Source: Eledone cirrhosa
Taxonomy: Eukaryota
Assembly: GCA_964016885.1 (NCBI GenBank)
Contig: OZ024740.1
Span: forward strand, 3,968,001 to 4,032,000
DNA: 64,000 nucleotides
Direction of reading: 5' to 3'
The notes below the pieces were generated by a model. That model was given only the letters and a program-made list of their open reading frames with translations. It ran no database searches and was not told the DNA's origin. Of this stretch, positions 3,433-64,000 are shown in pieces. Numbering within the stretch: position 1 is the stretch's first letter; every line of letters starts with the position of its first letter. The translations under genes and the position numbers were made by a program.

Positions 3433-3754
3433 AGGAGGTTACTTTCCTTCCGCCAGAACAATAAAGTAAACAGAGGAAGGAAACTGACAGAGAAATACAT
3501 TGATGTAGGGGGGCAGACATGACAGGTGGGACATCGTAATTCCTGGGAAAATATTTACCCTAAAGCAGGGCCTCTCTTTACAACCCCCTCCCACAATACC
3601 CACTTAACAACTCTGAGGAAACAACTCCCTCTGCTATATTCAATAGGCTACCCTCACATTCTGAAACACAACAGAAACTGTCCCATGTTTATTGAGATTA
3701 AAATTTCCAGACTATTAACCCATTGTTAAAGTGTATATATACAATATATATACA

Positions 3755-5097: not shown

Positions 5098-6650
5098 CAT
5101 ATAATAATAATAATAATAATAATAATATAATTATTGTGTAAAGTGCTCAGGTGCACTACAACTCGTCAAAGGTGTATGTATAGTACATAGAATAATATAC
5201 AAATGTCAGGGAAGTGAATAGTGTATGAGTCATGATATACATGTGTGTGAGTGTATGGAGGGGAACATTAGGTGTAGTGTTGGCGAATCTTGGGAAGCAT
5301 GGAGGTTTTAAGGGATGCAGTGTCTCGGCAGCTAACAACTAATGCAAGGAGTTTGTTCCATGCTTCAGCAACTCTGAACGTGAAAAAATGTTTCCGAAAG
5401 TCATGGGAACTGTGCTGTTTTCTGACTTTGTGGGCATGTCCACGTGTGTTCGACACATGGAAATCAAAAAGGTGCTCAGGGTTGTTGTTGGCAAGATGGT
5501 TAACAATTTTGTGGGTGTTTACCAAGTCAGTTGCCAGGTGTCGGAGCTTCAATGTATCCATGCCCAAGGAAGCAAGGCGCCCAGAGTATGGTAGATGCCT
5601 GATGGAGGGTATTCGCTTGGTTGCACGTCTCTGAACAATTTCCAGGCGGTCAATGTTCTGAGCAAGATAGGGGTTCTAGACTGGTGATACAAATTCTAAG
5701 TGTGGCCACACCATAGCCATGTACAGCCTTAAATAGATAGCTGGAGAGCGGCTGGCAAAGGTCTTGCTGAATGATGCTAACACACCCTCAGCCCGCTTGG
5801 CAATTTTAGAGACGTGCTTCGTCCAACGCAAATCACTGCTGACCCTAATACCCAGGTCACGTTCACAAGAAGACTTCTTGATATTAGTGCTGTGGAGGGA
5901 GTATGTGGATGCTGGGTTTTTACTCCCAAAATGCATGGTGGTACACTTGTCCACAACTAGCTTGAAATGCCAGTCTGTGATCCATTGTTGCATTGTGTCC
6001 AGGTCAGACTGCAAGCAAGATCTATAGTGTTCAGGATCTGTCCTTTTTATCTCAAGGTACAGCTTGATGTCATCTGCGTACTTTAGTACTGTGGCATTCT
6101 TTAAGTTGGCATCTATGTCATTAATATATGCCACAAACAAAAGGGGACCAAGAACAGATCCCTGTGGTACACCAGATGACATCTCATATGGTGAGGAATG
6201 TTGTCCCAGAACCGTAACTACCTCTCTTTGACTGAGAATGAAGGACTTCAACCAGTTAAAAAGATCATCCTTCACACCCATTGCAGAGAGTTTTGCCATA
6301 AGCCTTTTGTGTGGCACAGAATTGAAAGCTTTCGCAAAGTCAAGGTAAATAACATCTACCCATGAGCCACCATCAGTGATCCGAGTAATGTCTTCAAGAA
6401 ACTCGATAAGTTGATCACAGCAGCTGGAGTTGGGGATAAATCCAAATTGCGAGGGCCGGATAAGACTGTGAGAGTTCCAGAAGTTCCAAAGTGTTTCTCT
6501 GACACAGGATTCCATCAGTTTCGCAATGCAACTAGTAAGACTGACTGGACGGTAGTTCACAGGTGATGTGCGGTCACCCTTTTTGAACAGAGGAATGACA
6601 CTGGCAGTTTTCCACTGTTCTGGAGTAGCACCGTTGTTCAGACAGAATTG
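5098..6650 (-). mobile_element. 5'-truncated CR1-type LINE with 3' UTR and (TAT)n tail
   Basis: RT coding region 6650->5268, 3' UTR ~5267-5134, simple-repeat tail seen as (ATA)n at 5098-5133. No endonuclease domain or ORF1. Confidence 0.92.
5268..6650 (-). pseudogene. CR1-type ORF2 reverse transcriptase fragment with one in-frame stop
   Basis: Motifs WKTASVIPLFKKG, NYRPVSLTS, QFGF, YLDFAKAF, GVPQGSVLGPLLF, YADD, ERDLG, LEIVQRRATK, TRGH, WNKL. ORFs 5676-6560 and 5268-5567 share one frame, split by TAG at 5676-5678 where Trp is expected (PV*NPY). Confidence 0.93.
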
Positions 6651-6689
6651 ATAACTGTATAGAATAGATAACTTCTTATTTGTAATGAA

Positions 6690-7045
6690 TAAAGGTCATG
6701 TTTTTGATTCCTGGTTCCGGCAGTACATTGTGACACTTCATTTCACATTACTCCAGCCCACTCTTCTGCAAGGCAACATCTTCAGAGCTGGTGACACATT
6801 GACATAAACCATGTCCACTGGTTGGTGAAAAGAAAGGCATCCAGATCTAAAATATGGCCTGAACAGATGATAGAAGAATAGTGGAGACTCTTTAGTCCCC
6901 TTGTACACAACACCTGTCACCTTTTAATACACCCCCAGTCCACAGAGTTGGCTGATCTTTGTTGTGTGCACCAGATGATGAAGAATGTGACAGGGCATAA
7001 TGACTCCTGCCAAACCCATACCAGCAGTAAAAAGAACAAACCAAC
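6690..7045 (+). mobile_element. Highly degenerate SINE-like relic
   Basis: ccactggttggtgaaaagaaaggcatccag and ccaaacccataccagca resemble mollusc SINE body/tail motifs (recalled). A related tail occurs at 11456-11505. Boundaries uncertain. Confidence 0.35.
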
Positions 7046-8242: not shown

Positions 8243-8305
8243 GATAGGTAGGTAAGTAGGTAGGTAGGGTGAGAGAGAGGGATGGGGATAGATAGATAGA
8301 GAGAG

Positions 8306-8338
<33 letters not shown>

Positions 8339-8340
8339 TA
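8243..8340. repeat. (GGTA)n / (GA)n / (GATA)n compound microsatellite abutting the Tx1 copy 1 3' end
   Basis: Directly visible. Confidence 0.93.
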
Positions 8341-10744
8341 TTTCTTTATTAGCCACAGGGGCACAAAAGAAGGGGACAAATACAAAGGGGGAAGTTTACA
8401 TACAATAAAAACGTGTAAAATGTTATCACAGATGGAATTTAAAAGTTAGTCGATTTTCCCCAATAGAGGGAGACAGTTTATATGGGTAACACAGACCCCC
8501 GAAAAAAATGTGCAACCCTCATCTCCAGGAGTACGAAGAGCTTGTACTCCTTTCCTCTCCTCCTCCTTTTCCTCAACCTACAGGCTGATATAGAGAGAAG
8601 GCCCATTCACTCGGGCCATTCTCGCCACTTTCACCCACCTTTCATAAAACTTGCTGGGGTACAGCACCTCTCTCTCCATCCTGATTCTTCTTCCAAAGTG
8701 GTATTTGAAAAAAAGAATCAGTTGTTGGCCGGAGAGAAAGGTGTCTGACCTCAGCCCTTTCAACCTTGTCCACCATACAACCTCTTTCGCCATAGCTATC
8801 ACACAAAGGAAAACCGCCTCTCCTTCGTTTTTGAAGGAGGGTGGCGGTTTGATCATGACAATGGACTCGGTGGTCAACTGGATTGGTCCCACCCGCGACA
8901 ATAGTCGTTCCACATAGCCCCACAGGTCAGTGACGCCCGGGCAGTGTATGAATGCGTGCGCGACGGTTTCTTCGTCTCGCACGCACCTCGGACAGATCTT
9001 TTTTGCAGGGTCCCTGCCCGGGCGCCCATGTCTGTAGAGCTTGTCTCGAACTGGTAGAGCTCCTCGGTAGCACTGCCAGGCCAGGGACTTTTGGAAGTTG
9101 TCCATCGGTCCCGGGCGGAAGGTCCTACCGAACAGACTGGCCAGTTCATCTTCCTCCACGCCTAGAGTTTCACCGAGCGCGTCGTCGCACTTGCTGCGGA
9201 CCAACCCTCTATAGAATGACGAAGTGGAGTCTCCACTGATCGCCGGGTCCGCCTGCCAGAGGGCTGTGAGCGCCTGAGCACATTCGATGTGCCAGTCGCC
9301 CATTTTCCTCGGTCTCTGCTTGACCCAGGACTGCAGCTCGGTCAGCGAGACGAGTCGTGGGAAGGCTCGCCTCACGAACGGGGCCCACACCGGTTGTCCG
9401 GTGAGGAATACGTAGAGATGCCGCAGCCTGAGCGCGTGTTTGCGCATCGTCAACCACGGCATCCCCAGCCCTCCGTTAGAAGGGTGTTGGCAGCAGATGG
9501 ATCTTCTTACCAAAGGAGCCCGCCTCTTCCAAAGGAATCGGAAGAGGGCGCGCTCCATTTTGGCGAGCGTTTTGGCTGGACAAGGCACGACGGTCAAGCG
9601 GTAGTAGATGGCGGACGCTATAAAAGTGTTCGCCACCTCCGCTCGACCTTTCAAGGATAGTTTGCACTCGGCCCACTTCTGGGTGAGTGCAAACACCTTG
9701 GCCGTCACTTCGTTCCAGTTCTTCTCCACCTGGAGGTCCGGACCAAACCAGACCCCGAGCAGCTTTACCGGTCCTTCCGTCCAGCGTCCGACGACGCCAT
9801 CGGAAGGCATCGGTCTGCCTCTCCACGATCCGAGTTGCAAACCGATGGACTTGTCCCGGTTCAGCTTCGCTCCTGTGAGACTTTCGTATTCCTTTAGTAA
9901 GGTGCCGACTTCCTCGATTTGCGAGGCGCTCGACACCATTACTGTCACGTCGTCGGCGTAGGCCGACGCCGCTTTCCGCAGTCCCGGTTCCAGAGGGATG
10001 CCCTGCAATAGCTCCAGCTTCCGCAGTAGTGGCTCGAGAGTCAGTACGTACAGAAGGGAGGAGAGAGGGCATCCCTGTCGAATGGATCGCGTAATATGGA
10101 ACGGCTCCGAGAGGTAACCGTTCACCTTGACCCTTGAGCAGATGTTGCTGTTGTGCATTGCAGCAATCCAGCCCCTGAACACGGGTCCGAAGCCTGCCGC
10201 CTCGAGCACCGCATCCAGGTAACGATGGTCAACCCTATCGAAAGCCTTAGACTGATCCAAGTTGATCAGGGCCCCACCGAAGCCGGGTTTACACCCTACC
10301 CTCTCTATGATGTATCGCATGAGGTGGAGGTTGTCGTGTATGGACCTGGTCGGGATCGCGCATGTCTGCGCTTCTCCCACCAGGTTCTCGACGACAAGCG
10401 CCAGCCTCTTTGCCAACACCTTGGCCAAAATCTGTAACTCTGTGTTTAGCAGAGTTATGGGCCGGAAGTTGCCTATGTCATCCCCCTTATTCTCGTCCTT
10501 CCTGATTAGTGTGACCACGCCCCCGGTTACAGAATTGGGAATTCTCCCGTTCTGTTGCCAGTTGCAGTAGACCGCTTCCAGGAGACCGGAGAATAAGTCC
10601 GGCATTGCTACGTAAAATTCGTAGGGTAGACCGTCGAGACCTGGAGATTTGCGTTTGCCGCATTGGCTCAGCGCGTCCCCTATCTCAGTGGCTGAAATCG
10701 GCTTTTCGCAGAACTTCGCCTCGCTGTCCGAGAGTCGCGGTAAG
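8341..10744 (-). mobile_element. Tx1-clade non-LTR retrotransposon copy 1 (5'-truncated, ~2.4 kb)
   Basis: ORF2 fragment plus ~235-bp 3' UTR ending GGCTAATAAAGAAA; (GATA)n on both sides; GC- and CpG-rich relative to the flanks. Confidence 0.92.
8578..10740 (-). CDS. Tx1/L1-type ORF2 fragment: reverse transcriptase plus C-terminal CCHC zinc knuckle (uninterrupted ~720 codons, no endonuclease, no native start)
   Basis: KSPGLDGLPYEFY, NFRPITLLN, DQSKAFDRVDH, RQGCPLS, YADDVTV, KLLGVWF, GGLGMP, CPRC...ETVAHAFIHC. The track's first ~30 residues come from the neighbouring 3' UTR and microsatellite. Confidence 0.88.
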   Translation of the reverse strand, partial: PRLSDSEAKFCEKPISATEIGDALSQCGKRKSPGLDGLPYEFYVAMPDLFSGLLEAVYCNWQQNGRIPNSVTGGVVTLIRKDENKGDDIGNFRPITLLNTELQILAKVLAKRLALVVENLVGEAQTCAIPTRSIHDNLHLMRYIIERVGCKPGFGGALINLDQSKAFDRVDHRYLDAVLEAAGFGPVFRGWIAAMHNSNICSRVKVNGYLSEPFHITRSIRQGCPLSSLLYVLTLEPLLRKLELLQGIPLEPGLRKAASAYADDVTVMVSSASQIEEVGTLLKEYESLTGAKLNRDKSIGLQLGSWRGRPMPSDGVVGRWTEGPVKLLGVWFGPDLQVEKNWNEVTAKVFALTQKWAECKLSLKGRAEVANTFIASAIYYRLTVVPCPAKTLAKMERALFRFLWKRRAPLVRRSICCQHPSNGGLGMPWLTMRKHALRLRHLYVFLTGQPVWAPFVRRAFPRLVSLTELQSWVKQRPRKMGDWHIECAQALTALWQADPAISGDSTSSFYRGLVRSKCDDALGETLGVEEDELASLFGRTFRPGPMDNFQKSLAWQCYRGALPVRDKLYRHGRPGRDPAKKICPRCVRDEETVAHAFIHCPGVTDLWGYVERLLSRVGPIQLTTESIVMIKPPPSFKNEGEAVFLCVIAMAKEVVWWTRLKGLRSDTFLSGQQLILFFKYHFGRRIRMEREVLYPSKFYERWVKVARMARVNGPSLYISL

Positions 10745-10785
10745 ATAGATAGATAGATAGATAAACAGATAGATAGATAGATACA

Positions 10786-11430
10786 TTTCTTTATTAGCCA
10801 CAAGGGCACAAAAGAAGGGGACAAATACAAATGGGGAGTTTACATACAGGTATATGAAAATAAAACTATTAATAAAATAACAAATAACAATTGATATCCC
10901 CAATAGGGGGGGAGGTGTTACACAGGGGTTGTACACACCCCGAAAAAATGTACAATCCTCATCTCCAGGAGCACCCAGAGTGAGTACCCCTTCCTCTCTT
11001 CCTCTTTTTCTTCAACCTACAAGCTTATATAGAGAGAAGGCCCAACCACACGGGCCATCTTTTCCACATTCACCCACCTTTTATAAAATTTGCTGGGGTA
11101 CAGCACCTCTCTCTCCATCCTGATTCTTCTTCCAAAATGATATTTGAAAAAACGAATCAGTTGCTTGCCGGAGAGAAAGGTGTCTGACCTCAGCCCTTTT
11201 AACCTCGTCCACCATATAACCTCTTTCACCATAGCCATAACACATAGGAAAACCGCCTCTCCCTCGTTTTTGAAGGAGGGTGGCGGTTTGATCATGACAA
11301 TGGACTCGGTGGTCAACTGGATTGGTCCCACCCACGACAATAGTCGTTCTACATAGCCCCACAGGTCGGTAACGCTCAGGCAGTGTACAAATGCGTGCGT
11401 GACGGTTTCCTTGTCACGCACGCATCTCGG
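10786..11430 (-). mobile_element. Tx1 copy 2 (5'-truncated, ~645 bp, variant 3' UTR)
   Basis: Peptide 11017-11421 nearly identical to the copy 1 C-terminus; same AATAAAGAAA end; (GATA)n at both junctions. Confidence 0.92.
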
Positions 11431-11455
11431 ATAGATAGATAGATAGATAGATAGC

Positions 11456-11505
11456 TGTCTAACACATGCTAGCGTGGAAGATAGACGTTAAACAATGATG
11501 ATGAT
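11456..11505 (+). mobile_element. Short SINE/RTE-like 3' tail fragment ending in (GAT)n
   Basis: tgtctaacacatgctagcgtggaagatagacgttaaacaatgatgatgat resembles a common mollusc SINE tail (recalled). Confidence 0.45.
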
Positions 11506-11532
11506 AGAGAAGTAGGTAGATATATAGATATG

Positions 11533-12423
11533 TTTCTTTATTAGCCACAGGTGACCAAAAGAAGGGGACAAATACAAAGGGGGAAGTTTACATACAATAA
11601 AAACATGTAAAATACTATCACAAATACAATTTAAAAGTTAATCGATTTTCCCCAAATAGGGGGAGACATTTCATATGGGTAACACATACCTCCGAAAAAA
11701 ATGTACAACCCTCATCTCCAGGAGTACGAAGAGTTTGTACCCCTTTCCTCTCTTCCTCTTTTTCCTCAACCTACAGGCTGATATAGAGAGAAGGCCCATT
11801 CACTCGGACCATTCTCGCCACTTTCACCCACCTTTCATAAAACTTGCTGGGGTACAGCACCTCTCTCTCCATCCTGATTCTTCTTCCAAAGTGGTATTTG
11901 AAAAGAAGAATCAGTTGTTGGCCGGAGAGAAAGGTGTCTGACCTCAGCCCTTTCAACCTCGTCCACCGTACAACCTCTTTCGCCATAGCTATCACACAAA
12001 GGAAAACCGCCTCTCCTTCGTTTTTGAAGGAGGGTGGCGGTTTGATCATGACAATGGACTCGGTGGTCAACCGGATTGGTCCCACCCGCGACAATAGTCG
12101 TTCTACATAGCCCCACAGGTCGGTAACACTCGGGCAGTGTATGAATGTGTGCACAACGGTTTCTTCATCTCGCACGCACCTCGGACAGATCTTTTTTGCA
12201 GGGACCCTGCCCGGGCGGCCATGGCTGTAGAGCTTGTCTTGAACTGGTAGAGCTCTTCGGTAGCACTGCCAGGCCAGGGACTTTTGGAAGTTGTCCATCG
12301 GTCCCGGGCAGAAGGTCCTACCGAACAGACTGGCCAGTTCATCTTCCTCTATGCCTAGAGTTTCACCGAGAGTCCGAGAGTGTCGTCGCACTTGCTGCGG
12401 ACCAACCCTCTATAGAATGTCGA
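11533..12423 (-). mobile_element. Tx1 copy 3 (5'-truncated, ~890 bp)
   Basis: Colinear with 8341-9222; carries an 8-bp duplication (ccgagagt x2, ~12366-12381) causing a frameshift; GATA-type repeats at both ends. Confidence 0.92.
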
Positions 12424-12569
12424 TAGATAAATAGATGGATAGATAGATAGACATTCTGATAGAGAGATAGACAGATATATAGACAGGTAGATAGAGAGAG
12501 AGAGAGACAGGTAGATATAGAGAGAGAGAGACAGGTAGACAGAGAGAGAGAGAGAGACAGGTAGATAAC

Positions 12570-12625
12570 TTTCTTTTTATTTGCCACCAGGGCATCAAAA
12601 GTGGGACAAGTACAAAGGGGGGAGT
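12570..12625 (-). mobile_element. Tx1 copy 4, 3'-terminal ~55-bp relic
   Basis: tttctttttatttgccaccagggcatcaaaagtgggacaagtacaaagggggga matches the copy 1 terminus tttctttattagccacaggggcacaaaagaaggggacaaatacaaaggggga. Confidence 0.8.
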
Positions 12626-14071
12626 AACAACTGATGGAGGTAGTTTGTTCCATGGAGGTTTTAAAGGATGCAGTGTCTCGGCAGCTAATAACTGATGCAG
12701 GGAGTTTGTTCCATGGAGGTTTTAAAGGATACAGTGTCTCAACAGCTGACAACTGATGTAGGTAGTTTGTTCCATGGAGGTTTTAAAATATGTAGTGTCT
12801 CGACAGCTATCAACTGATGCAAGTAGTTTGCTCCATGGAGGTTTTAAAGGATGCAGTGTCTCGACAGCTAACAACTGATGCAGGGAGTTTGTTCCATGGA
12901 GGTTTTAAAGGATGCAGTGTCTCGACAGCTATCAACTGATGTAGGTAGTGTGTTCCATGGAGGTTTTAAAGGATGCAGTGTCTCGACAGCTAACAACTGA
13001 TGCAGTTAGTTTGTTCCATGGAGGTTTTAAAGGATGCAGTGTCTCGGCAGTTAATAACTGATGCAGGGAGTTTGTTCCATGGAAGTTTTAAAGGATGCAG
13101 TGTCTCGGCAGCTAACAACTGATGCAGGGAGTTTGTTCCATGGAGGTTTTAAAAGATGCAGTGTATCGACAGCTGACAACTGATGTAGGTAGTGTGTTCC
13201 ATGGAGGTTTTAAAGGATGCAGTGTCTCGACAGCTAACAACTGATGCAGGGAGTTTGTTCCATGGAGGTTTTAAAGGATGCAGTGTCTCGACAGCTATCA
13301 ACTGATACAGATAGTTTGTTCCATGGAGGTTTTAAAGGATGCAGTGTCTCGACAGCTAACAACTGATGTAGGTAGTTTGTTCCATGGAGGTTTTAAAGGA
13401 TGCAGTGTCTCGACAGCTGACAACTGATGTAGGTAGTTTGTTCCATGGAGGTTTTAAAGGATGCAGTATCTCGACAGCTATCAACTGATCCAGGTAGTTT
13501 GTTCCATGAAGGTTTTAAAGGATGCAGTGTCTCGACAGCTAACAACTGATGCAGGGAGTTTGTTCCATGGAGGTTTTAAAGGATGCAGTGTCTCGACAAC
13601 TGACAACTGATGCAGGTAGTTTGTTCCATGGAGGTTTTAAAGGATGCAGTGTCTCGACAGCTGACAACTGATGCAGGGAGTTTGTTCCATGGAGGTTTTA
13701 AAGGATGCAGTGTCTTGACAGCTAACAACTGATGCAGGTAGTTTGTTCCATGGAGGTTTTAAAGGATCAGTGTCTCGGCAGCTGACAACTGATGTAGGTA
13801 GTGTGTTCCATGGAGGTTTTAAAGGATGCAGTGTCTCAACAGCTAACAACTGATGCAGGGAGTTTGTTCCATGGAGCTTTTAAAGGATGCAGTGTCTCGA
13901 CAGCTAACAACTGATGCAGGTAGTTTGTTCCATGGAGGTTTTAAAGGATGCAGTGTCATGACAGCTAACAACTGATGCAGGTAGTTTGTTCCATGGAGGT
14001 TTTAAAGGATGCAGTGTCTCGACAGCTAACAACTGATGCAGGCAGTTTGTTCCAATCTTCAGCAACTCTGA
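12626..14071. repeat. 61-bp tandem satellite (~23 copies) derived from the CR1 ORF2 3' end
   Basis: Unit catggaggttttaaaggatgcagtgtctcgacagctaacaactgatgcagg[g/t]agtttgttc; period 61 (12651, 12712, 12773); matches 5298-5358. Confidence 0.96.
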
Positions 14072-15060: not shown

Positions 15061-18000
15061 GAGAGATTGAGGGCTGCACCAGCCACACTGTGGTACTGGG
15101 TCTGAGAGATTGAGGACTGCACCAGCCACACTGTGGTACTGGGTCTGAGAGATTGAGGACTGCACCATCCACACTGTGGCACTGGGTCTGAGAGATTGAG
15201 GACTGCACCATCCACACTGTGGTACTGGGTCTGAGAGATTGAGGGCTGCACCATCCACACTGTGGCACTGGGTCTGAGAGATTGAGGACTGCACCATCCA
15301 CACTGTGGCACTGGGTCTGAGAGATTGAGGACTGCACCACCCACACTGTGGTACTGGGTCTGAGAGATTGAGGACTGCACCATCCACACTGTGGCACTGG
15401 GTCTGAGAGATTGAGGACTGCAGTATCCACACTGTGGTACTGGGTCTGAGAGATTGAGGACTGCACCATCCACACTGTGGCACTGGGTCTGAGAGATTGA
15501 GGACTGCACCATCCACACTGTGGCACTGGGTCTGAGAGATTGAGGACTGCAGTATCCACACTGTGGTACTGGGTCTGAGAGATTGAGGACTGCAGTATCC
15601 ACACTGTGGTACTGGGTCTGAGAGATTGAGGACTGCACCAGCCACACTGTGGCACTGGGTCTGAGAGATTGAGGACTGCACCAGCCACACTGTGGCACTG
15701 GGTCTGAGAGATTGAGGGCTGCACCTCCCACACTGTGGCACTGGGTCTGAGAGATTGAGGACTGCACCAGCCACACTGTGGCACTGGGTCTGAGAGATTG
15801 AGGACTGCACCATCCACACTGTGGTACTGGGTCTGAGAGATTGAGGACTGCACCACCCACACTGTGGCACTGGGTCTGAGAGATTGAGGACTGCACCAGC
15901 CACACTGTGGCACTGGGTCTGAGAGATTGAGGGCTGCACCTTCCACACTGTGGCACTGGGTCTGAGAGATTGAGGGCTGCACCATCCACACTGTGGCACT
16001 GGGTCTGAGAGATTGAGGACTGCACCATCCACACTGTGGCACTGGGTTTGAGAGATTGAGGACTGCACCAGCCACACTGTGGCACTGGGTCTGAGAGATT
16101 GAGGGCTGCACCATCCACACTGTGGCACTGGGTCTGAGAGATTGAGGACTGCACCATCCACACTGTGGCACTGGGTCTGAGAGATTGAGGGCAGCACCAT
16201 CCACACTGTGGCACTGGGTCTGAGAGATTGAGGGCTGCACCATCCACACTGTGGCACTGGGTCTGAGAGATTGAGGGCAGCACCAGCCCCACTATGGTAC
16301 TGGGTCTGAGAGATTGAGGGCTGCACCAGCCCCACTATGGCACTCGGTCTGAGAGATTGAGGGCTGCACCATCCACACTGTGGCACTGGGTCTGAGAGAT
16401 TGAGGGCAGCACCATCCCCACTATGGTACTGGGTTGAGAGATTGAGGGCTGCACCAGACCCACTATGGCACTGGGTCTGAGAGATTGAGGGCTGCACCAT
16501 CCACACTGTGGCACTGGGTCTGAGAGATTGAGGGCAGCACCAGCCCCACTATGGCACTGGGTCTGAGAGATTGAGGGCTGCACCATCCACACTGTGGCAC
16601 TGGGTCTGAGAGATTGAGGGCTGCACCATCCACACTGTGGTACTGGGTCTGAGAGATTGAGGGCAGCACCAGCCCTACTATGGCACTGGGTCTGAGAGAT
16701 TGAGGGCTGCACCATCCACACTGTGGTACTGGGTCTGAGAGATTGAGGGCAGCACCAGCCCCACTATGGCACTGGGTCTGAGATATTGAGGCCTGCACCA
16801 TCCACACTGTGGCACTGGGTCTGAGAGATTGAGGGCTGCACCATCCACACTGTGGTACTGGGTCTGAGAGATTGAGGGCAGCACCAGCCCTACTATGGCA
16901 CTGGGTCTGAGAGATTGAGGGCTGCACCACCCACACTGTGGCACTGGGTCTGAGAGATTGAGGGCAGCACCAACCACACTGTGGAAATGGGTCTGAGAGA
17001 TTGAGGGCTGCACCAGCCACACTATGGCACTGGGTCTGAGAGATTGAGGGCTGCACCATCCACACTATGGCACTGGGTCTGAGAGATTGAGGGCTGCACC
17101 ATCCACACTATGGCACTGGGTCTGAGAGATTGAGGGCAGCACCATCCCCACTATGGCACTGGGTCTGAGATTTTGAGGCCTGCACCATCCACACTGTGGC
17201 ACTGGGTCTGAGAGATTGAGGGCTGCACCATCCACACTGTGGTACTGGGTCTGAGAGATTGAGGGCAGCACCAGCCCTACTATGGCACTGGGTCTGAGAG
17301 ATTGAGGGCTGCACCATCCACACTATGGCACTGGGTCTGAGAGATTGAGGGCAGCACCAACCACACTGTGGCACTGGGTCTGAGAGAGTGAGGGTACACC
17401 AGCCACACTGTGGTACTGGGTCTGAGAGAGTGAGGGCAGCACCATACACACTGTGGCACTGGGTCTGAGAGAGTGAGGGCAGCACGAGCCACACTGTGGT
17501 ACTGGGTCTGAGAGATTGAGGGCAGCACCATCCACACTATGGCACTGGGTCTGAGAGATTGAGGGCTGCACCATCCACACTGTGGCACTGGGTCTGAGAG
17601 ATTGAGGGCTGCACCAGCCCCACTGTGGTCCTGGGTCTGAGAGATTGAGGGCAGCACCATCCCCACTGTGGTACTGGGTCTGAGAGATTGAGGGTAGCAC
17701 CATCCACACTGTGGTACTGGGTCTAAAAGATTGAGGACTGCACCATCCACACTGTGGTACTGGGTCTGATAGATTGAGGACTGCACATCCACACTGTGGG
17801 ACTGGGTCTGAGAGATTGAGGACTGCACCTCCACACTGTGGTACTGGGTCTGAGAGATTGAGGGTAGCACCATCCACACTGTGGTACTGGGTCTGATAGA
17901 TTGAGGACTGCACCATCCACACTGTGGTACTGGGTCTGAGAGATTGAGGGTAGCACCATCCACATTGTGGTACTGGGTCTGAAAGATTGAGGACTGCAAC

Positions 18001-21000
18001 ATCCACACTGCGGTACTGGGTCTGAGAGATTGAGGACTGCACCAGCCACACTGTGGTACTGGGTCTGAAAGATTGAGGACTGCACCATCCACACTGTGGT
18101 ACTGGGTCTGAGAGATTGAGGGTAGCACCATCCACACTGTGGTACTGGGTCTGAGAGATTGAGGACTGCACCTCCACACTGTGGTACTGGGTCTGAGAGA
18201 TTGAGGGTAGCACCATCCACACTGTGGTACTGGGTCTGAAAGATTGAGGACTGCAACATCCACACTGTGGCACTTGGTCTGAGAGATTGAGGACTGCACC
18301 ATCCACACTATGGCACTGGGTCTGAGAGATTGAGGGCTGCACCATCCACACTATGGCACTGGGTCTGAGAGATTGAGGGCTGCACCATCCACACTGTGGC
18401 ACTGGGTCTGAGAGATTGAGGGCAGCACCAGCCCCACTATGGCACTGGGTCTGAGAGATTGAGGCCTGCACCATCCACACTGTGGCACTGGGTCTGAGAG
18501 ATTGAGGGCTGCACCATCCACACTGTGGTACTGGGTCTGAGAGATTGAGGGCAGCACCAGCCCTACTATGGCACTGGGTCTGAGAGATTGAGGGCAGCAC
18601 CAACAACACTGTGGAAATGGGTTTGAGAGATTGAGGGCTGCACCAGCCACACTATGGCACTGGGTCTGAGAGATTGAGGGCTGCACCATCCACACTATGG
18701 CACAGGGTCTGAGAGATTGAGGGCTGCACCATCCACACTATGGCACTGGTTCTGAGAGATTGAGGGCAGCACCAACCACACTGTGGCACTGGGTCTGAGA
18801 GAGTGAGGGCAGCACCAGCCACACTGTGGTACTGGGTCTGAGAGAGTGAGGGCAGCACCATACACACTGTGGCACTGGGTCTGAGAGAGTGAGGGCAGCA
18901 CGAGCCACACTATGGCACTGGGTCTGAGAGATTGAGGGCAGCACCATCCACACTATGGCACTGGGTCTGAGAGATTGAGGGCTGCACCATCCACACTGTG
19001 GCACTGGGTCTGAGAGTGTGAGGGCAGCACCATCCACACTATGGCACTGTGTCTGAGAGATTGAGGACTGCAGTATCCACACTGTGGTACTGGGTCTGAG
19101 AGATTGAGGGCTGCACCAGCCCCACTGTGGCCCTGGGTCTGAGTGATTGAGGGCAGCACCATCCCCACTGTGGCACTGGGTCTGAGAGATTGAGGGTAGC
19201 ACCATCCACACTGTGGTACTGTGTCTGAGAGATTGAGGACTGCACCTCCACACTGTGGGACTGGGTCTGAGAGATTGAGGACTGCACCATCCACACTGTG
19301 GTACTGGGTCTGAAAGATTGAGGACTGCAACCACCACACTGTGGCACTGGGTCTGAGAGATTGAGGGCAGCACCATCCACACTGTGGCACTTGGTCTGAG
19401 AGATTGAGGACTGCACCATCCACACTGTGGCACTGGGTCTGAGAGATTGAGGGCAGCACCATCCACACTGTGGTACTGGGTCTGAGAGATTGAGGGCAGC
19501 ACCATCCACACTATGGTACTGGGTCTGAGAGATTGAGGACTGCACCAGCCACACTGTGACACTGGGTCTGAGAGATTGAGGACTGCACCATCCACACTGA
19601 GGTACTGGGTCTGACAGATTGAGGGCAGCACCATCCACACTGTGGCACTGGGTCTGAGAGATTGAGGACTGCAGTAACCACAAGGTGGCATTGGGTCTGA
19701 GAGATTGATGGCTGCAGTACCCACACTGTGGCACTGGGTCTGAGAGATTGAGGACTGCAGTATCCACACTGTAGTACTGGGTCTGAGAGATTGAGGGCTG
19801 CACCATCCACACTGTGGCACTGGGTCTGAGAGATTGAGGACTGCACCATCCACACTGTGGTACTGGGTCTGAGAGATTGAGGACTGCACCATCCACACTG
19901 TGGCACTGGGTCTGAGAGATTGAGGACTGCGCCATCCACACTGTGGTACTGGGTCTGAGAGATTGAGGACTGCACTATCCACACTGTGGCACTGGGTCTG
20001 AGAGATTGAGGACTGCACCATCCACACTGTGGCACTGGGTCTGAGAGATTGAGGACTGCACCAGCCACACTGTGGGACTGGGTCTGAGAGATTGAGGACT
20101 GCACCAGCCACACTGTGGCACTGGGTCTGAGAGATTGAGGACGGCAGTACCCACACTGTGGTACTGGGTCTGAGAGATTGAGGACTGCACCATCCACACT
20201 GTGGCACTGGGTCTGAGAGATTGAGGACTGCACCATCCACACTGTGCCACTGGGTCTGAGAGATTGAGGGCTGCACCATCCACACTGTGGCACTGGGTCT
20301 GAGAGATTGAGGACTGCACCATCCACACTGTGGCACTGGGTCTGAGAGATTGAGGACTGCAGTACCCACACTGTGGCACTGGGTCTGAGAGATTGAGGAC
20401 TGCACCATCCACACTGTGGCACTGGGTCTGAGAGATTGAGGGCTGCACCATCCACACTGTGGTACTGGGTCTGAGAGAGTGAGGGCAGCACCAGCCACAC
20501 TGTGGTACTGAGTCTGAGAGATTGAGGGCTGCACCATCCACACTGTGGTACTGGGTCTGAGAGATTGAGGGCAGCACCATCCACACTGTGGTACTGGGTC
20601 TGAGAGATTGAGGACTGCAGTAACCACACTGTGGTACTGGGTCTGAGAGATTGAGGACTGCACCATCCACACTGTGGTACTGGGTCTGAGAGATTGAGGA
20701 CTGCACCATCCACACTGTGGTACTGGGTCTGAGAGATTGAGGATTGCACCATCCACACTGTGGCACTGGGTCTGAGAGATTGAGGGCTGCACCATCCACA
20801 CTGTGGAACTGGGTCTGAGAGATTGAGGACTGCAGTAACCACACTGTGGCACTGGGTCTGAGAGATTGAGGACTGCACCATCCACACTGTGGAACTGGGT
20901 CTGAGAGATTGAGGACTGCAGTAACCACACTGTGGCACTGGGTCTGAGAGATTGAGGACTGCACCAGCCACACTGTGGCACTGGGTCTGAGAGATTGAGG

Positions 21001-24000
21001 GCTCCACCATCCACACTGTGGCACTGGGTCTGAGAGATTGAGGGCTCCACCAGCCATACTGTGGGACTGGGTCTGAGAGATTGAGGAGTGCTACATCCAC
21101 ACTGTGGTACTGGGTCTGAGAGATTGAGGATTGCACCATCCACACTGTGGCACTGGGTCTGAGAGATTGAGGGCTGCACCATCCACACTGTGGAACTGGG
21201 TCTGAGAGATTGAGGACTGCAGTAACCACACTGTGGCACTGGGTCTGAGAGATTGAGGACTGCACCATCCACACTGTGGCACTGGGTCTGAGAGATTGAG
21301 GACAGCACCAGCCATACTGTGGGACTGGGTCTGAGGAGATTGAGGACTGCACCATCCACACTGTGGCACTGGGTCTGAGAGATTGAGGACTGCACCAGCC
21401 ACACTGTGGCACTGGGTCTGAGAGATTTAGGACAGCACCAGCCATACTGTGGGACTGGGTCTGAGAGATTGAGGAGTGCACCATCCACACTGTGGAACTG
21501 GGTCTGAGAGATTGAGGACTGCACCAGCCACACTGTGACACTGGGGCTGAGAGATTGAGGGCTCCACCATCCACACTGTGGTACTGGGTCTGAGAGATTG
21601 AGGACTGCACCATCCACACTGTGGCACTGGGTCTGAGAGATTGAGGACAGCACCAGCCATACTGTGGGACTGGGTCTGAGAGATTGAGGACTGCACCACC
21701 CACACTGTGGCACTGGGTCTGAGAGATTGAGGGCTGCACCATCCACACTGTGGTACTGGGTCTGAGAGATTGAGGACGGCAGTTACCACACTGTGGCACT
21801 GGGTCTGAGAGATTGAGGACAGCACCAGCCATACTGTGGGACTGGGTCTGAGAGATTGAGGACTGCACCATCCACACTGTCGCACTGGGTCTGAGAGATT
21901 GAGGACTGCAGTATCCACACTGTGGTACTGGGTCTGAGAGATTGAGGGCTGCACCATCCACACTGTGGCACTGGGTCTGAGAGATTGAGGACTGCAGTAA
22001 CCACACTGTGGTACTGGGTCTGAGAGATTGAGGGCTGCACCATCCACACTGTGGCACTGGGTCTGAGAGATTTAGGACAGCACCAGCCACACTGTGGTAC
22101 TGGGTCTGAGAGATTGAGGACTGCAGTAACCACACTGTGGCACTGGGTCTGAGAGATTGAGGACTGCACCAGCCACATTGTTGCACTGGGTCTGAGAGAT
22201 TGAGGACTGCACCAGCCACACTGTGGTACTGGATCTGTGAGATTGAGGACTGCAGTATACACACTGTGGCACTGGGTCTGAGAGATTGAGGACTGCACCA
22301 GCCACATTGTGGCACTGGGTCTGAGAGATTGAGGATTGCACCATCCACACTGTGGCACTGGGTCTGAGAGATTGAGGGCTGCACCATCCACACTGTGGAA
22401 CTGGGTCTGAGAGATTGAGGACTGCAGTAACCACACTGTGGCACTGGGTCTGAGAGATTGAGGGCTGCACCATCCACACTGTGGCACTGGGTCTGAGAGA
22501 TTGAGGACTGCACCAGCCACATTGTGGCACTGGGTCTGAGAGATTGAGGACTGCACCAGCCACACTGTGGCACTGGGTCTGAGAGATTGAGGACTGCACC
22601 ATCCACACTGTGGCACTGGGTCTGAGAGATTGAGGGCAGCACCATCCACACTGTGGCACTGGGTCTGAGAGATTGAGGGCTGCACTATCCAAACTGTGGA
22701 ACTGGGTCTGAGAGATTGAGGACTGCACCATCCACACTGTGGCACTGGGTCTGAGAGATTGAGGACTGCACCATCCACACTGTGGTACTGGGTCTGAGAG
22801 ATTGAGGACTGCACCAGCCACACTGTGGCACTGGGTCTGAGAGATTGAGGACTGCACCATCCACACTGTGGTACTAGGTCTGAGAGATTGAGGACTGCAC
22901 CATCCACACTGTGATACTGGGTCTGAGAGATTGAGGGCAGCATCATCCACACTGTGGCACTGGGTCTGAGAGATTGAGGTCTGCACCATCCACACTGTGG
23001 CACTGGGTCTGAGAGATTGAGGACTGCACCATCCACACTGTGGCACTGGGTCTGAGAGATTGAGGACTGCACCATCCACACTGTGGCACTGGGTCTGAGA
23101 GATTGAGGACTGCAGTATCCACACTGTGGCACTGGGTCTGAGAGATTGAGGGCTGCACCATCCACACTGTGGCACTGGGTCTGAGAGATTGAGGACTGCA
23201 CCATCCACACTGTGGCACTGGGTCTGAGAGATTGAGGACAGCACCAGCCATACTGTGGGACTGGGTCTGAGGAGATTGAGGACTGCACCAGCCACACTGT
23301 GGCACTGGGTCTGAGAGATTGAGGACTGCACCAGCCACACTGTGGCACTGGGTCTGAGAGATTTAGGACAGCACCAGCCATACTGTGGGACTGGGTCTGA
23401 GAGATTGAGGAGTGCACCATCCACACTGTGGAACTGGGTCTGAGAGATTGAGGACTGCACCAGCCACACTGTGACACTGGGGCTGAGAGATTGAGGGCTC
23501 CACCATCCACACTGTGGTACTGGGTCTGAGAGATTGAGGACTGCACCATCCACACTGTGGCACTGGGTCTGAGAGATTGAGGACAGCACCAGCCATACTG
23601 TGGGACTGGGTCTGAGAGATTGAGGACTGCACCACCCACACTGTGGCACTGGGTCTGAGAGATTGAGGGCTGCACCATCCACACTGTGGTACTGGGTCTG
23701 AGAGATTGAGGACTGCAGTTACCACACTGTGGCACTGGGTCTGAGAGATTGAGGACAGCACCAGCCATACTGTGGTACTGGGTCTGAGAGATTGAGGACT
23801 GCACCAGCCACACTGTGGGACTGGGTCTGAGAGATTGAGGACTGCAGTACCCACACTGTGGCACTTGGTCTGAGAGATTGAGGGCTGCACCATCCACACT
23901 GTGGAACTGGGTCTGAGAGATTGAGGGCAGCACCATCCACACTGTGGTACTGGGTCTGAGAGATTGAGGACTGCACCATCCACACTGTCGCACTGGGTCT

Positions 24001-27000
24001 GAGAGATTGAGGACTGCAGTATCCACACTGTGGTACTGGGTCTGAGAGATTGAGGGCTGCACCATCCACACTGTGGCACTGGGTCTGAGAGATTGAGGAC
24101 TGCAGTAACCACACTGTGGTACTGGGTCTGAGAGATTGAGGGCTGCACCATCCACACTGTGGCACTGGGTCTGAGAGATTTAGGACAGCACCAGCCACAC
24201 TGTGGTACTGGGTCTGAGAGATTGAGGACTGCAGTAACCACACTGTGGAACTGGGTCTGAGAGATTGAGGACTGCACCAGCCACATTGTGGCACTGGGTC
24301 TGAGAGATTGAGGACTGCACCAGCCACACTGTGGTACTGGATCTGTGAGATTGAGGACTGCAGTATCCACACTGTGGCACTGGGTCTGAGAGATTGAGGA
24401 CTGCACCAGCCACATTGTGGCACTGGGTCTGAGAGATTGAGGGCTGCACCATCCACACTGTGGCACTGGGTGTGAGAGATTGAGGACTGCACCATCCACA
24501 CTGTGGAACTGGGTCTGAGAGATTGAGGACTGCAGTATCCACACTGTGGCACTGGGTCTGAGAGATTGAGGACTGCACCAGCCACATTGTGGCACTGGGT
24601 CTGAGAGATTGAGGACTGCACCAGCCACACTGTGGCACTGGGTCTGAGAGATTGAGGACTGCACCATCCACACTGTGGCACTGGGTCTGAGAGATTGAGG
24701 GCAGCACCATCCACACTGTGGCACTGGGTCTGAGAGATTGAGGGCTGCACTATCCAAACTGTGGAACTGGGTCTGAGAGATTGAGGACTGCACCATCCAC
24801 ACTGTGGCACTGGGTCTGAGAGATTGAGGACTGCACCATCCACACTGTGGTACTGGGTCTGAGAGATTGAGGACTGCACCAGCCACACTGTGGCACTGGG
24901 TCTGAGAGATTGAGGACTGCACCATCCACACTGTGGTACTAGGTCTGAGAGATTGAGGACTGCACCATCCACACTGTGATACTGGGTCTGAGAGATTGAG
25001 GGCAGCATCATCCACACTGTGGCACTGGGTCTGAGAGATTGAGGTCTGCTCCATCCACACTGTGGCACTGGGTCTGAGAGATTGAGGACTGCACCATCCA
25101 CACTGTGGCACTGGGTCTGAGAGATTGAGGACTGCACCATCCACACTGTGGCACTGGGTCTGAGAGATTGAGGACTGCAGTATCCACACTGTGGCACTGG
25201 GTCTGAGAGATTGAGGGCTGCACCATCCACACTGTGGCACTGGGTCTGAGAGATTGAGGACTGCACCATCCACACTGTGGTACTGGGTCTGAGAGATTGA
25301 GGACTGCACCATCCACACTGTGGTACTGGGTCTGAGAGATTGAGGACTGCACCATCCACACTGTGGCACTGGGTCTGAGAGATTGAGGACTGCAGTATCC
25401 ACACTGTGGCACTGGGTCTGAGAGATTGAGGGCTGCAGTATCCACACTGTGGCACTGGGTCTGAGAGATTGAGGACTGCAGTTACCACACTGTGGCACTG
25501 GGTCTGAGAGATTGAGGACTGCACCATCCACATTGTGGCACTGGGTCTGAGAGATTGAGGACTGCACCAGCAACACTGTGGCACTGGGTCTGAGAGATTG
25601 AGGACTGCAACATCCACACTGTGGGACTGGGTCTGAGAGATTGAGGACTGCACCATCCACACTGTGGCACTGGGTCTGAGAGATTGAGGACTGCACCATC
25701 CACACTGTGGGACAGGGTCTGAGAGATTGAGGACTGCACCCCCACACTGTGGCACTGGGTCTGAGAGATTGAGGACTGCACCATCCACACTATGGCACTG
25801 GGTCTGAGAGATTGAGGACTGCACCATCCACACTGTGGGACTGGGTCTGAGAGATTGAGGACTGCACCAGCCACACTGTGGGACTGGGTCTGAGAGATTG
25901 AGGACTGCAGTACCCACACTGTGGTACTGGGTCTGAGAGATTGAGGACTGCACCACCCACACTGTGGCACTGGGTCTGAGAGATTGAGGACTGCAGTATC
26001 CACACTGTGGCACTGGGTCTGAGAGATTCAGGACTGCACCATCCACACTGTGGCACTGGGTCTGAGAGATTGAGGACTGCACCATCCACACTGTGGTACT
26101 GGGTCTGAGAGATTGAGGGCTGCACCATCCACACTGTGGAACTGGGTCTGAGAGATTGAGGACTGCACCAGCCACACTGTGGTACTGGGTCTGAGAGATT
26201 GAGGACTGCACCAGCCACACTGTGGTACTGGGTCTGAGAGATTGAGGGCTGCACCATCCACACTGTGGAACTGGGTCTGAGAGATTGAGGACTGCACCAG
26301 CCACACTGTGGTACTGGGTCTGAGAGATTGAGGACTGCACCATCCACACTGTGGTACTGGGTCTGAGAGATTGAGGGCTGCACCTTCCACACTGTGGAAC
26401 TGGGTCTGAGAGATTGAGGACTGCACCATCCACACTGTGGTACTGGGTCTGAGAGATTGAGGGCTGCACCATCCACACTGTGGAACTGGGTCTGAGAGAT
26501 TGAGGACTGCACCAGCCACACTGTGGTACTGGGTCTGAGAGATTGAGGACTGCAGTATCCACACTGTGGCACTGGGTCTGAGAGATTCAGGACTGCACCA
26601 TCCACACTGTGGCACTGGGTCTGAGAGATTGAGGACTGCACCATCCACACTGTGGTACTGGGTCTGAGAGATTGAGGACTGCACCAGCCACACTGTGGTA
26701 CTGGGTCTGAGAGATTGAGGACTGCACCATCCACACTGTGGTACTGGGTCTGAGAGATTGAGGACTGCACCATCCACACTGTGGTACTGGGTCTGAGAGA
26801 TTGAGGACTGCACCAGCCACACTGTGGCACTGGGTCTGAGAGATTGAGGACTGCAGTACCCACACTGTGGCACTTGGTCTGAGAGATTGAGGGCTGCACC
26901 ATCCACACTGTGGAACTGGGTCTGAGAGATTGAGGGCAGCACCATCCACACTGTGGTACTGGGTCTGAGAGATTGAGGACTGCACCAGCCACTCTGTGGC

Positions 27001-27095
27001 ACTGGGTCTGAGAGATTGAGGACTGCACCAGCCACACTGTGGTACTGGGTCTGAGAGATTGAGGACTGCGCCATCCACACTGTGGTACTGGGTCT
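15061..27095. repeat. 43-bp satellite array (~280 copies)
   Basis: Consensus gagagattgaggactgcaccatccacactgtggcactgggtct; sharp boundaries; regional variant clusters and ~2-kb internal duplications. Confidence 0.98.
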
Positions 27096-62329: not shown

Positions 62330-64000
62330 TACCACCACTATATATACACTACCACCACTATATATACACTACCACCACTATATATACACTACCACCACTA
62401 TATATATACACCACCACTATATATACACTACCACCACTATATACACACTACCACCACTATATATACACTACCACCACTATATACACTACCAGCACTATAT
62501 ACACTACCACCACTATATATACACTACCACCACTATATACACACTACCACCACTATATATACACTACCACCACTATATATATACTACCACCACTATATAT
62601 ACACTACCACCACTATATATACACTACCACCACTATATATATACACCACCACTATATATACACTACCACCACTATATACACACTACCACCACTATATACA
62701 CTACCACCACTATATATACAGTACCACCACTATATACACTACCAGCACTATATACACTACCACCACTATATATACACTACCACCACTATATATACACTAC
62801 CACCACTATATACACTACCAGCACTATATACACTACCACCACTATATACACACTACCACCACTATATACACTACCACCACTATATATACTACCACCACTA
62901 TATATACACTACCACCACTATATATACACTACCACCACTATATACACACTACCACCACTATATACACTACCACCACTATATATACACTACCACCACTATA
63001 TACACTACCAGCACTATATACACTACCACCACTATATATACACTACCACCACTATATATACACTACCACCACTATATATACACTACCACCACTATATATA
63101 CACTACCACCACTATATATACACTACCACCACTATATACACTACCACCACTATATACACTACCACTACTATATACACACTACCACCACTATATATACACT
63201 ACCACACTATATACACACTACCACCACTATATACACACTACCACCACTATATATACACTACCACCACTATATATACACTACCACCACTATATATACACTA
63301 CCACCACTATATATACACTACCACCACTATATATAAACTACCACCACTATATACACTACCACCACTATATATACACTACCACCACTATATATACACTACC
63401 ACTACTATATACACACTACCACCACTATATACACACTACCACCACTATATATAAACTACCACCACTATATATAAACTACCACCACTATATATACACTACC
63501 ACCACTATATACACTACCACCACTATATACACACTACCACCACTATATACACACTACCACCACTATATATAAACTACCACCACTATATATACACTAGCAC
63601 CACTATATACACACTACCACCACTATATACACACTACCACCACTATATATATACTACCACCACTATATACACACTACCACCACTATATATAAACTACCAC
63701 CACTATATATACACTACCACCACTATATATACACTACCACCACTATATATACACTACCACCACTATATACACTACCACTACTATATACACACTACCAGCA
63801 CTATATACACTACCACCACTATATATACACTACCACCACTATATATACACTACCCCCACTATATATATACACTACCACCACTATATATACACTACCACCA
63901 CTATATATATACTACTACCACTATATACACACTACCACCACTATATACACACTACCACCACTATATATACACTACCACCACTATATATACACTACCACCA
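62330..64000. repeat. ~20-bp minisatellite (accaccactatatatacact)n, running off the window end
   Basis: Directly visible; unit length varies (~18-22 bp) mainly through the number of TA steps. Confidence 0.97.

Follow-up and report, generated by a model that had tools for sequence, protein, structure and literature searches.

An L1-group LINE lineage of Eledone cirrhosa lies in (TATC)n/(GATA)n repeats at both ends, likely through insertion into the repeat

The window analysed here is a stretch of 64,000 nt from the genome of Eledone cirrhosa (assembly GCA_964016885.1, OZ024740.1, 3,968,001-4,032,000). Within its positions 8243..12625, four pieces of one long interspersed nuclear element (LINE) lineage lie on the minus strand, and their 3' ends run into TATC repeats, which read as GATA on the plus strand. 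The locus raises the question of whether this repeat is the target into which the element inserts, a tail that the element carries with it, or the setting of an array that grew by tandem duplication. With high confidence, we conclude that young copies of this L1-group, probably Tx1-clade, LINE lie in (TATC)n/(GATA)n at both ends, likely by insertion into the repeat via target-primed reverse transcription.

A search of the same genome with the last 300 nt of the first window piece (copy 1) returned 723 candidates, and all 40 candidates that were scored were 100% identical. Longer stretches around the matches hold full-length copies, and the complete element that an earlier note on this DNA had called for was thus recovered at L044, a copy of 5,843 bp with both open reading frames (ORFs) intact, which serves as the reference below. 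Its ORF1 of about 638 aa has a CCHC knuckle, CX2CX4HX4C; the Pfam match to zf-CCHC reaches only an E value of 0.24, and atlas matches of 0.89-0.92 to CCHC/ZCCHC3-type clusters are a lead. In Pfam, ORF2 (1,145 aa) matches Exo_endo_phos, an apurinic/apyrimidinic-type endonuclease (APE), followed by the reverse transcriptase (RT) domain RVT_1 and a C-terminal zf-RVT, and its best PDB match is human L1 ORF2p (8SXT, E 6e-52, alignable residues 4-856). Because ORF2 combines an APE endonuclease, an RT and a C-terminal Cys/His motif, we assign the element to the L1 group, and the L1-group traits of a fixed 3' end, 5' truncation and short target duplications are present as well. Exact occurrences of the last 40 nt of copy 1 number 4,799 in the genome, 2,037 of them followed by TATATCTAT, while the 5' end of the element occurs 439 times, with TCTAT directly before 356. 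The lineage is young and recently expanded, and its near-identity and intact ORFs suggest that it may be active at present.

To describe the flanks, we took 100 copies on contig C1, namely the 40 scored copies and 60 more in order from the first 100 listed 3'-end matches, and counted 97 after removal of three tandem twins. A flank was called positive when at least 10 of 12 bases matched (TATC)n, and a copy young when it was at least 97% identical to the reference. The background was set by 20 evenly spaced 10-kb stretches (200 kb), in which 383 of 399,520 12-nt windows (0.1%) match at this level and no (TATC)3 run occurs. The tabulation of both flanks that the earlier note had proposed gave TATC at the 5' side of 71 of the 97 copies and at the 3' side of 83. 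Papers are cited by PMC number, here and below, for the parts of their text that were available; in one, an element counts as sequence-specific when one sequence type occupies more than 20% of its flanks (PMC4494074), a level that both counts exceed. Among young 5'-truncated copies the repeat is found at the 5' side in 42 of 55 and at the 3' side in 47 of 55. It is still present at the 5' junction in 22 of the 34 that have no family member upstream and in 17 of the 28 that are fully isolated. Isolated copies with random 5' flanks were sought and are not the pattern, in agreement with the (TATC)n targeting proposed from the window alone. Since TATC stands at arbitrary 5' truncation points, the repeat there is not the element's tail. 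Young full-length copies have TATC at the 5' side in 9/9 cases, and these are less telling because donor RNA could supply their 5' repeat. Insertion shows no bias toward one end of a run, the 5' run being longer in 14 of 34 and shorter in 20.

Several duplications flanking the copies contain non-repeat bases (L087, 21 bp; L068, 14 bp; L003 and L019, 11 bp each; L012, 10 bp; further cases at L060, L105 and L109), which identifies them as true target duplications, with lengths of about 10-21 bp overall. At L003, uninterrupted paralogues of the host repeat (three rows) carry the duplicated motif once, and this was the only usable case of a paralogous empty site among the fetched loci listed. A flank-to-flank join at L019 was not seen among the contig matches listed (four runs on L019 and four on its flank), where other copies swamped the matches.

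These data bear on a rival explanation: the element would insert at random and carry (TATC)n solely as an encoded tail, with any repeat at a 5' end either left by the tail of an earlier neighbour or formed afterwards. It draws on the seven of 34 young copies with TATC at the 3' side only or nowhere and on the 36 of 97 copies with an upstream neighbour, but it does not account for 5' TATC at arbitrary truncation points in the 22 neighbour-free copies against a background of 0.1%, nor for the duplicated non-repeat bases. We consider it very improbable.

Insertion into the repeat has points against it too. The 5' test is failed by 12 of the 34 young copies without an upstream neighbour; by eye, four of the 12 have a TATC run at most 30 bp away and one has a duplication, and seven of the 34 (L023, L034, L038, L039, L096, L107 and L110) lack any 5' target sign. 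Several of these seven keep TATC at the 3' side, so part of the 3' run can be element-derived. Furthermore, the insertion site of L003 is degenerate and non-repeat and that of L034 is a CA repeat, which makes the specificity loose. The flank sample was drawn from a single contig and is skewed toward the 3' end of one subfamily, the length of a duplication is unreadable inside pure repeats, and deep support in the RT trees considered below is weak (71/86). Taken together, target specificity is strong but loose, and the RNA is probably the source of the first few nucleotides of the 3' run.

The 3' junction itself has a fixed phase, in which AATAAA..GAAA is followed by zero to two variable nucleotides and then TATCT. 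Across 172 3' ends, drawn from all subfamilies in the fetched loci and deduplicated by context, TATCT occupies bases 3-7 (NN-TATCT) in 156, and the first two bases vary with the type of untranslated region (UTR). Poly(A), typical of mammalian L1, was found at 0/172 of these ends, which excludes an ordinary L1-like end but not the L1 group. At the 5' side, 19 of 41 junctions continue the repeat by at least 2 nt, compared with 13% under the null. A variant of insertion into the repeat is that a loose nuclease nicks many sites and that only those ends able to pair with a read-through UAUC tail prime reverse transcription. The lack of poly(A), the UTR-dependent two nucleotides after GAAA, the degenerate site used by L003 and the TATATCT end of L034 even within a CA repeat all favour such RNA-DNA pairing. 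Against it, the junction phase is fixed in the 156 ends across families, and target choice is reported to be set mainly by the endonuclease (PMC4494074). We regard this variant as possible, and hold it only tentatively.

The window shows how copies of different age share one repeat tract. As first reported from the sequence, its four same-strand pieces have different 5' truncation points, and all were located on the minus strand:

8243 to 8340, plus strand: GGTA/GA/GATA repeat run, in which 8287-8340 forms the (TATC)n flank on the 3' side of copy 1 (minus strand), beginning TATATCT and holding GATA x13 at 8287-8338
8341 to 10742, minus strand: copy 1, youngest subfamily, 2,402 bp, 5'-truncated at reference position 3442 (of 5,843 bp); 99.96% identical to L044 and 100% to L046
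8578 to 10742, minus strand: open ORF2 remnant of copy 1 with RT (RVT_1, E 3e-27) and C-terminal zf-RVT (E 2e-6), stop at 8578-8580
8341 to 8577, minus strand: 3' UTR of copy 1, terminating in AATAAAGAAA, without poly(A)
10743 to 10785, plus strand: (GATA)n spacer, the 5' flank of copy 1 and 3' flank of copy 2
10786 to 11429, minus strand: copy 2, divergent subfamily, 645 bp, 84.7% identical to L044; best match among the fetched loci 95%
11430 to 11532, plus strand: gap between copies 2 and 3, with (GATA)6, then about 50 bp belonging to another dispersed repeat (7 matches in other fetched loci) and a degenerate GATA run at the 3' end of copy 3
11533 to 12421, minus strand: copy 3, 889 bp, an older relative of copy 1 with 93.8% identity to L044 and 3' junction CATATCT
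12422 to 12569, plus strand: a degenerate GATA/GA/GGTA run of about 150 bp that separates copy 3 from copy 4
12570 to 12626, minus strand: copy 4, 3' scrap of a further subfamily, 57 bp, 96-98% identical to ends in other loci and 98% to a copy in L055; its 5' end adjoins a 61-bp satellite

In all four copies the 3' end, AATAAA..GAAA, leads through two variable bases into TATCT. None has poly(A), and the 5' ends of copies 1-3 abut (GATA)n, both as the earlier note had described; the 5' end of copy 4, at the satellite, does not. The claim of head-to-tail stacking in GATA holds for copies 1 and 2, the only ones joined by a near-pure GATA spacer, and has to be qualified for the other two gaps, one of which includes the other dispersed repeat while the other is degenerate. 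The 5' truncation points of copy 1 (at 10742) and of a copy at L049:6098 almost coincide (3442 and 3441 in reference numbering) and fall on a repeat-like microhomology.

Stacking is frequent elsewhere, with a family neighbour within 300 bp of 50 of the 97 C1 copies. In the most extensive case described here, about 30 kb at C1 63,910,200-63,940,750 (L214-L218), six elements of several related families, five of them near full length, stand head to tail, with nothing but TATC runs of 32-84 bp between them. Their ORF2 pieces are 58-99.9% identical to the reference, and two adjacent young full-length copies have an intact ORF2. Several related families thus share the TATC target and build mixed head-to-tail arrays.

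Such arrays could alternatively have arisen mostly from tandem duplication, unequal crossing-over or RT jumping between RNAs. In its favour, 5 of 23 truncated copies (in four arrays) have the same 5' junction as their truncated downstream neighbour, and there are two chimeras that share their 5' junction with an older downstream copy: at L050:4031-7573, the upstream copy equals that copy for its first ~380 bp and then the young reference, whereas at L048:2663-10000 the compared stretch of 1.45 kb agrees throughout between the upstream and downstream copies. Further tandem twins or triplets, at L009/L010, L017/L018 and L027/L028, are identical in their 5' junctions, the first pair with a common internal deletion in addition, and these may stem from duplication, template switching or an assembly artefact. 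On the other side, the junctions differ in 18 of the 23, and for most neighbours identity to the reference is 76-95%. In the window, the identities of 99.96, 84.7 and 93.8% for copies 1-3, and the match of copy 4 to a further subfamily, mean that the copies are not duplicates of each other. L050, moreover, has no family copy upstream of its chimera, as a simple crossover would leave. We judge duplication an improbable source of most arrays. The earlier claim of independent insertions accordingly stands for the window copies, which differ in subfamily and junction, and fails as a general rule, since not every stacked copy is independent. L1 makes homology-mediated duplications. For the L050 and L048 chimeras, our preferred reading is that new complementary DNA (cDNA) annealed to a resident copy, and recombination or conversion is the less preferred one. 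The available text of PMC11702581 yielded no published precedent for homology-mediated duplication.

At the scale of the genome, there are 17,144 runs in which (TATC)5 comes directly after a base other than C, and 6,401 cases in which it comes after an element-type end, compared with 25 for the reversed control; 26 of the first 100 listed rows of element end plus (TATC)5 fall outside the 17,144-run count. We estimate that about 4,700 long TATC runs, roughly a quarter, start at an element end. With so large a share of long runs at element ends, stacking would need no extra self-recognition.

Insertion into the repeat could then proceed as follows. The endonuclease would nick the GATA strand near TA|TCT, and the RNA, extending a few nucleotides past GAAA into UAUC repeat, would pair through its UAUC end with the nicked end and so take over the role of poly(A) in priming reverse transcription. 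Cleavage of the second strand would fall 10-20 bp downstream, with the 5' end joined to the repeat by microhomology. As each insertion would leave repeat on both sides, later copies of any sister family may stack there, and target availability alone could explain the stacking. Occasionally, the cDNA would anneal to a resident copy just downstream and copy its 5' part, the likely origin of same-junction chimeras. A more speculative extension, possible but doubtful at present, is a self-feeding loop in which priming is guided by read-through UAUC tails, which also start new GATA runs or extend existing ones. The element would thereby make a large share of its own targets, and homology-guided joining to resident copies would shuffle families within arrays.

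Microsatellite targets reported for Tx1 elements are TC, TTC, TTCC and TTTC (PMC4494074), with Kibi on (TC)n and Koshi on (TTC)n in teleosts and crocodilian Tx1 on (TTCC)n/(TTTC)n (PMC4494074, PMC3812793). Repeat targets also include ACAY, AC, TC, TTC and TAA, by a targeting mechanism described as not well understood (PMC3812793), and TG is the target of a restriction-like family (PMC4640811). The present element resembles Kibi, Koshi and crocodilian Tx1 as an APE-type element without long terminal repeats that prefers a pyrimidine-rich microsatellite. Its unit, TATC, is outside all those listed (ACAY, AC, TC, TTC, TAA, TTCC, TTTC and TG), and, as a further difference, the target is common to several sister families that form long mixed arrays. 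Identity with the Kibi or Koshi target was rejected, because the target here is (TATC)n and only the occasional copy, for example L067, leads into (TC)n. Human L1 (8SXT) has the same APE-RT layout but uses poly(A) and prefers TTAAAA weakly (PMC3812793), whereas the Eledone element lacks poly(A) and carries a CCHC knuckle in ORF1. For octopus L1-Tx1, 80 families are reported, 13 of them recently active with 421 insertions, and for Octopus vulgaris neither 'target' in the available main text nor TATC/GATA in one supplement was found (PMC13282606); a homologous consensus may already be catalogued, without its target, in the O. vulgaris library. A TATC/GATA-targeting Tx1 was not found in the literature searched, and Repbase and Dfam lay outside this comparison, so that prior cataloguing is possible. 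TATC is a well-supported new target unit for a known kind of sequence-specific retrotransposon.

Keno, a Tx1 family specific for U2 small nuclear RNA genes (PMC6136364, PMC4640811) with TCTGTTC as its 3' target (PMC6136364), is a further comparison; among the top-ranked metagenome relatives, U2-associated elements occur in 6 of the first 20 loci. Three U2-inserted loci have an A-rich end followed by GTATCTGTTC, and the TA|TCT core common to the U2 site and the TATC target is a lead only. The U2-associated elements are about 29-32% identical to the Eledone lineage, target a gene and end A-rich. The tree, in which the two are separate, did not support a sister relation, and identity with Keno was rejected, the 100 flanks, read without an Rfam scan of these loci, being repeats or other sequence.

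The Tx1 clade is characterised by an ORF1 with an RNA-binding domain and a CCHC knuckle. In a protein search, the element had one 70% relative (P0001), a group near 40% and then relatives at 22-30%. The P0002 group (732, 435 and 352 cluster members), at about 40% identity, is a high-copy sister lineage. No clear TATC end was seen at L168. Two RT trees, one of 54 of 157 rows and one of all 157, neither with a named Tx1 or vertebrate L1 row, unite the element's own families in one clade (100/99) inside a distinct lineage (100/100), which lies in an open fork (71/86) with U2-, 5S-, tRNA- and U1-associated elements, apart from plant L1. Rfam placed U2 in 6, 5S in 2, tRNA in 2 and U1 in 1 of 80 metagenome loci, kinds of target that are reported for Tx1 families. 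From sequence comparison, Tx1-clade membership is thus probable. The metagenome LINEs beside U2, 5S, tRNA-cluster or U1 genes (L131, L132, L137, L141, L146, L147; L148, L153; L171; L185) are likely Keno-, Mutsu- and Dewa-like elements. A fish protein model, P0042, has ZCCHC3-type RNA-binding domains after ORF2, probably because gene prediction joined on the ORF1 of the next element, a hint of a tandem array. Near-identical pieces of the element also occur in contigs with other organism labels. Run X7, under another such label, contains a 305-bp piece over the 3' UTR (L019:1501-1804) with one mismatch and one gap, which may reflect either close kinship or transfer, and loose ends past the 3' end read as GATA repeat in runs X5 (58 contigs) and X8 (1 contig), hinting that the TATC association may extend beyond the E. 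cirrhosa genome.

Satellites fill most of the window, at 12625-14054 (61-bp unit), 15061-27095 (43-bp unit), 28788-60867 (26-bp unit, 1,266 copies, 32 kb) and 62330-64000 (20-bp unit). Another LINE-like RT fragment, recognised by eye from the ORF list, lies at 5268-6695 on the minus strand.

The principle of repeat targeting was already known; what is new is the target unit, which adds TATC to those of sequence-specific APE retrotransposons. Intact, near-identical full-length copies and thousands of insertions make targeting by the endonuclease, as against targeting by the RNA tail, directly testable. Much of the long GATA repeat of this genome is tied to one transposon lineage, which bears on microsatellite markers and on the assembly of arrays. 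If the self-feeding loop were true, the lineage would amount to an active system of several families that builds arrays and drives the birth of microsatellites across the host group, and it might offer a GATA-directed insertion tool.

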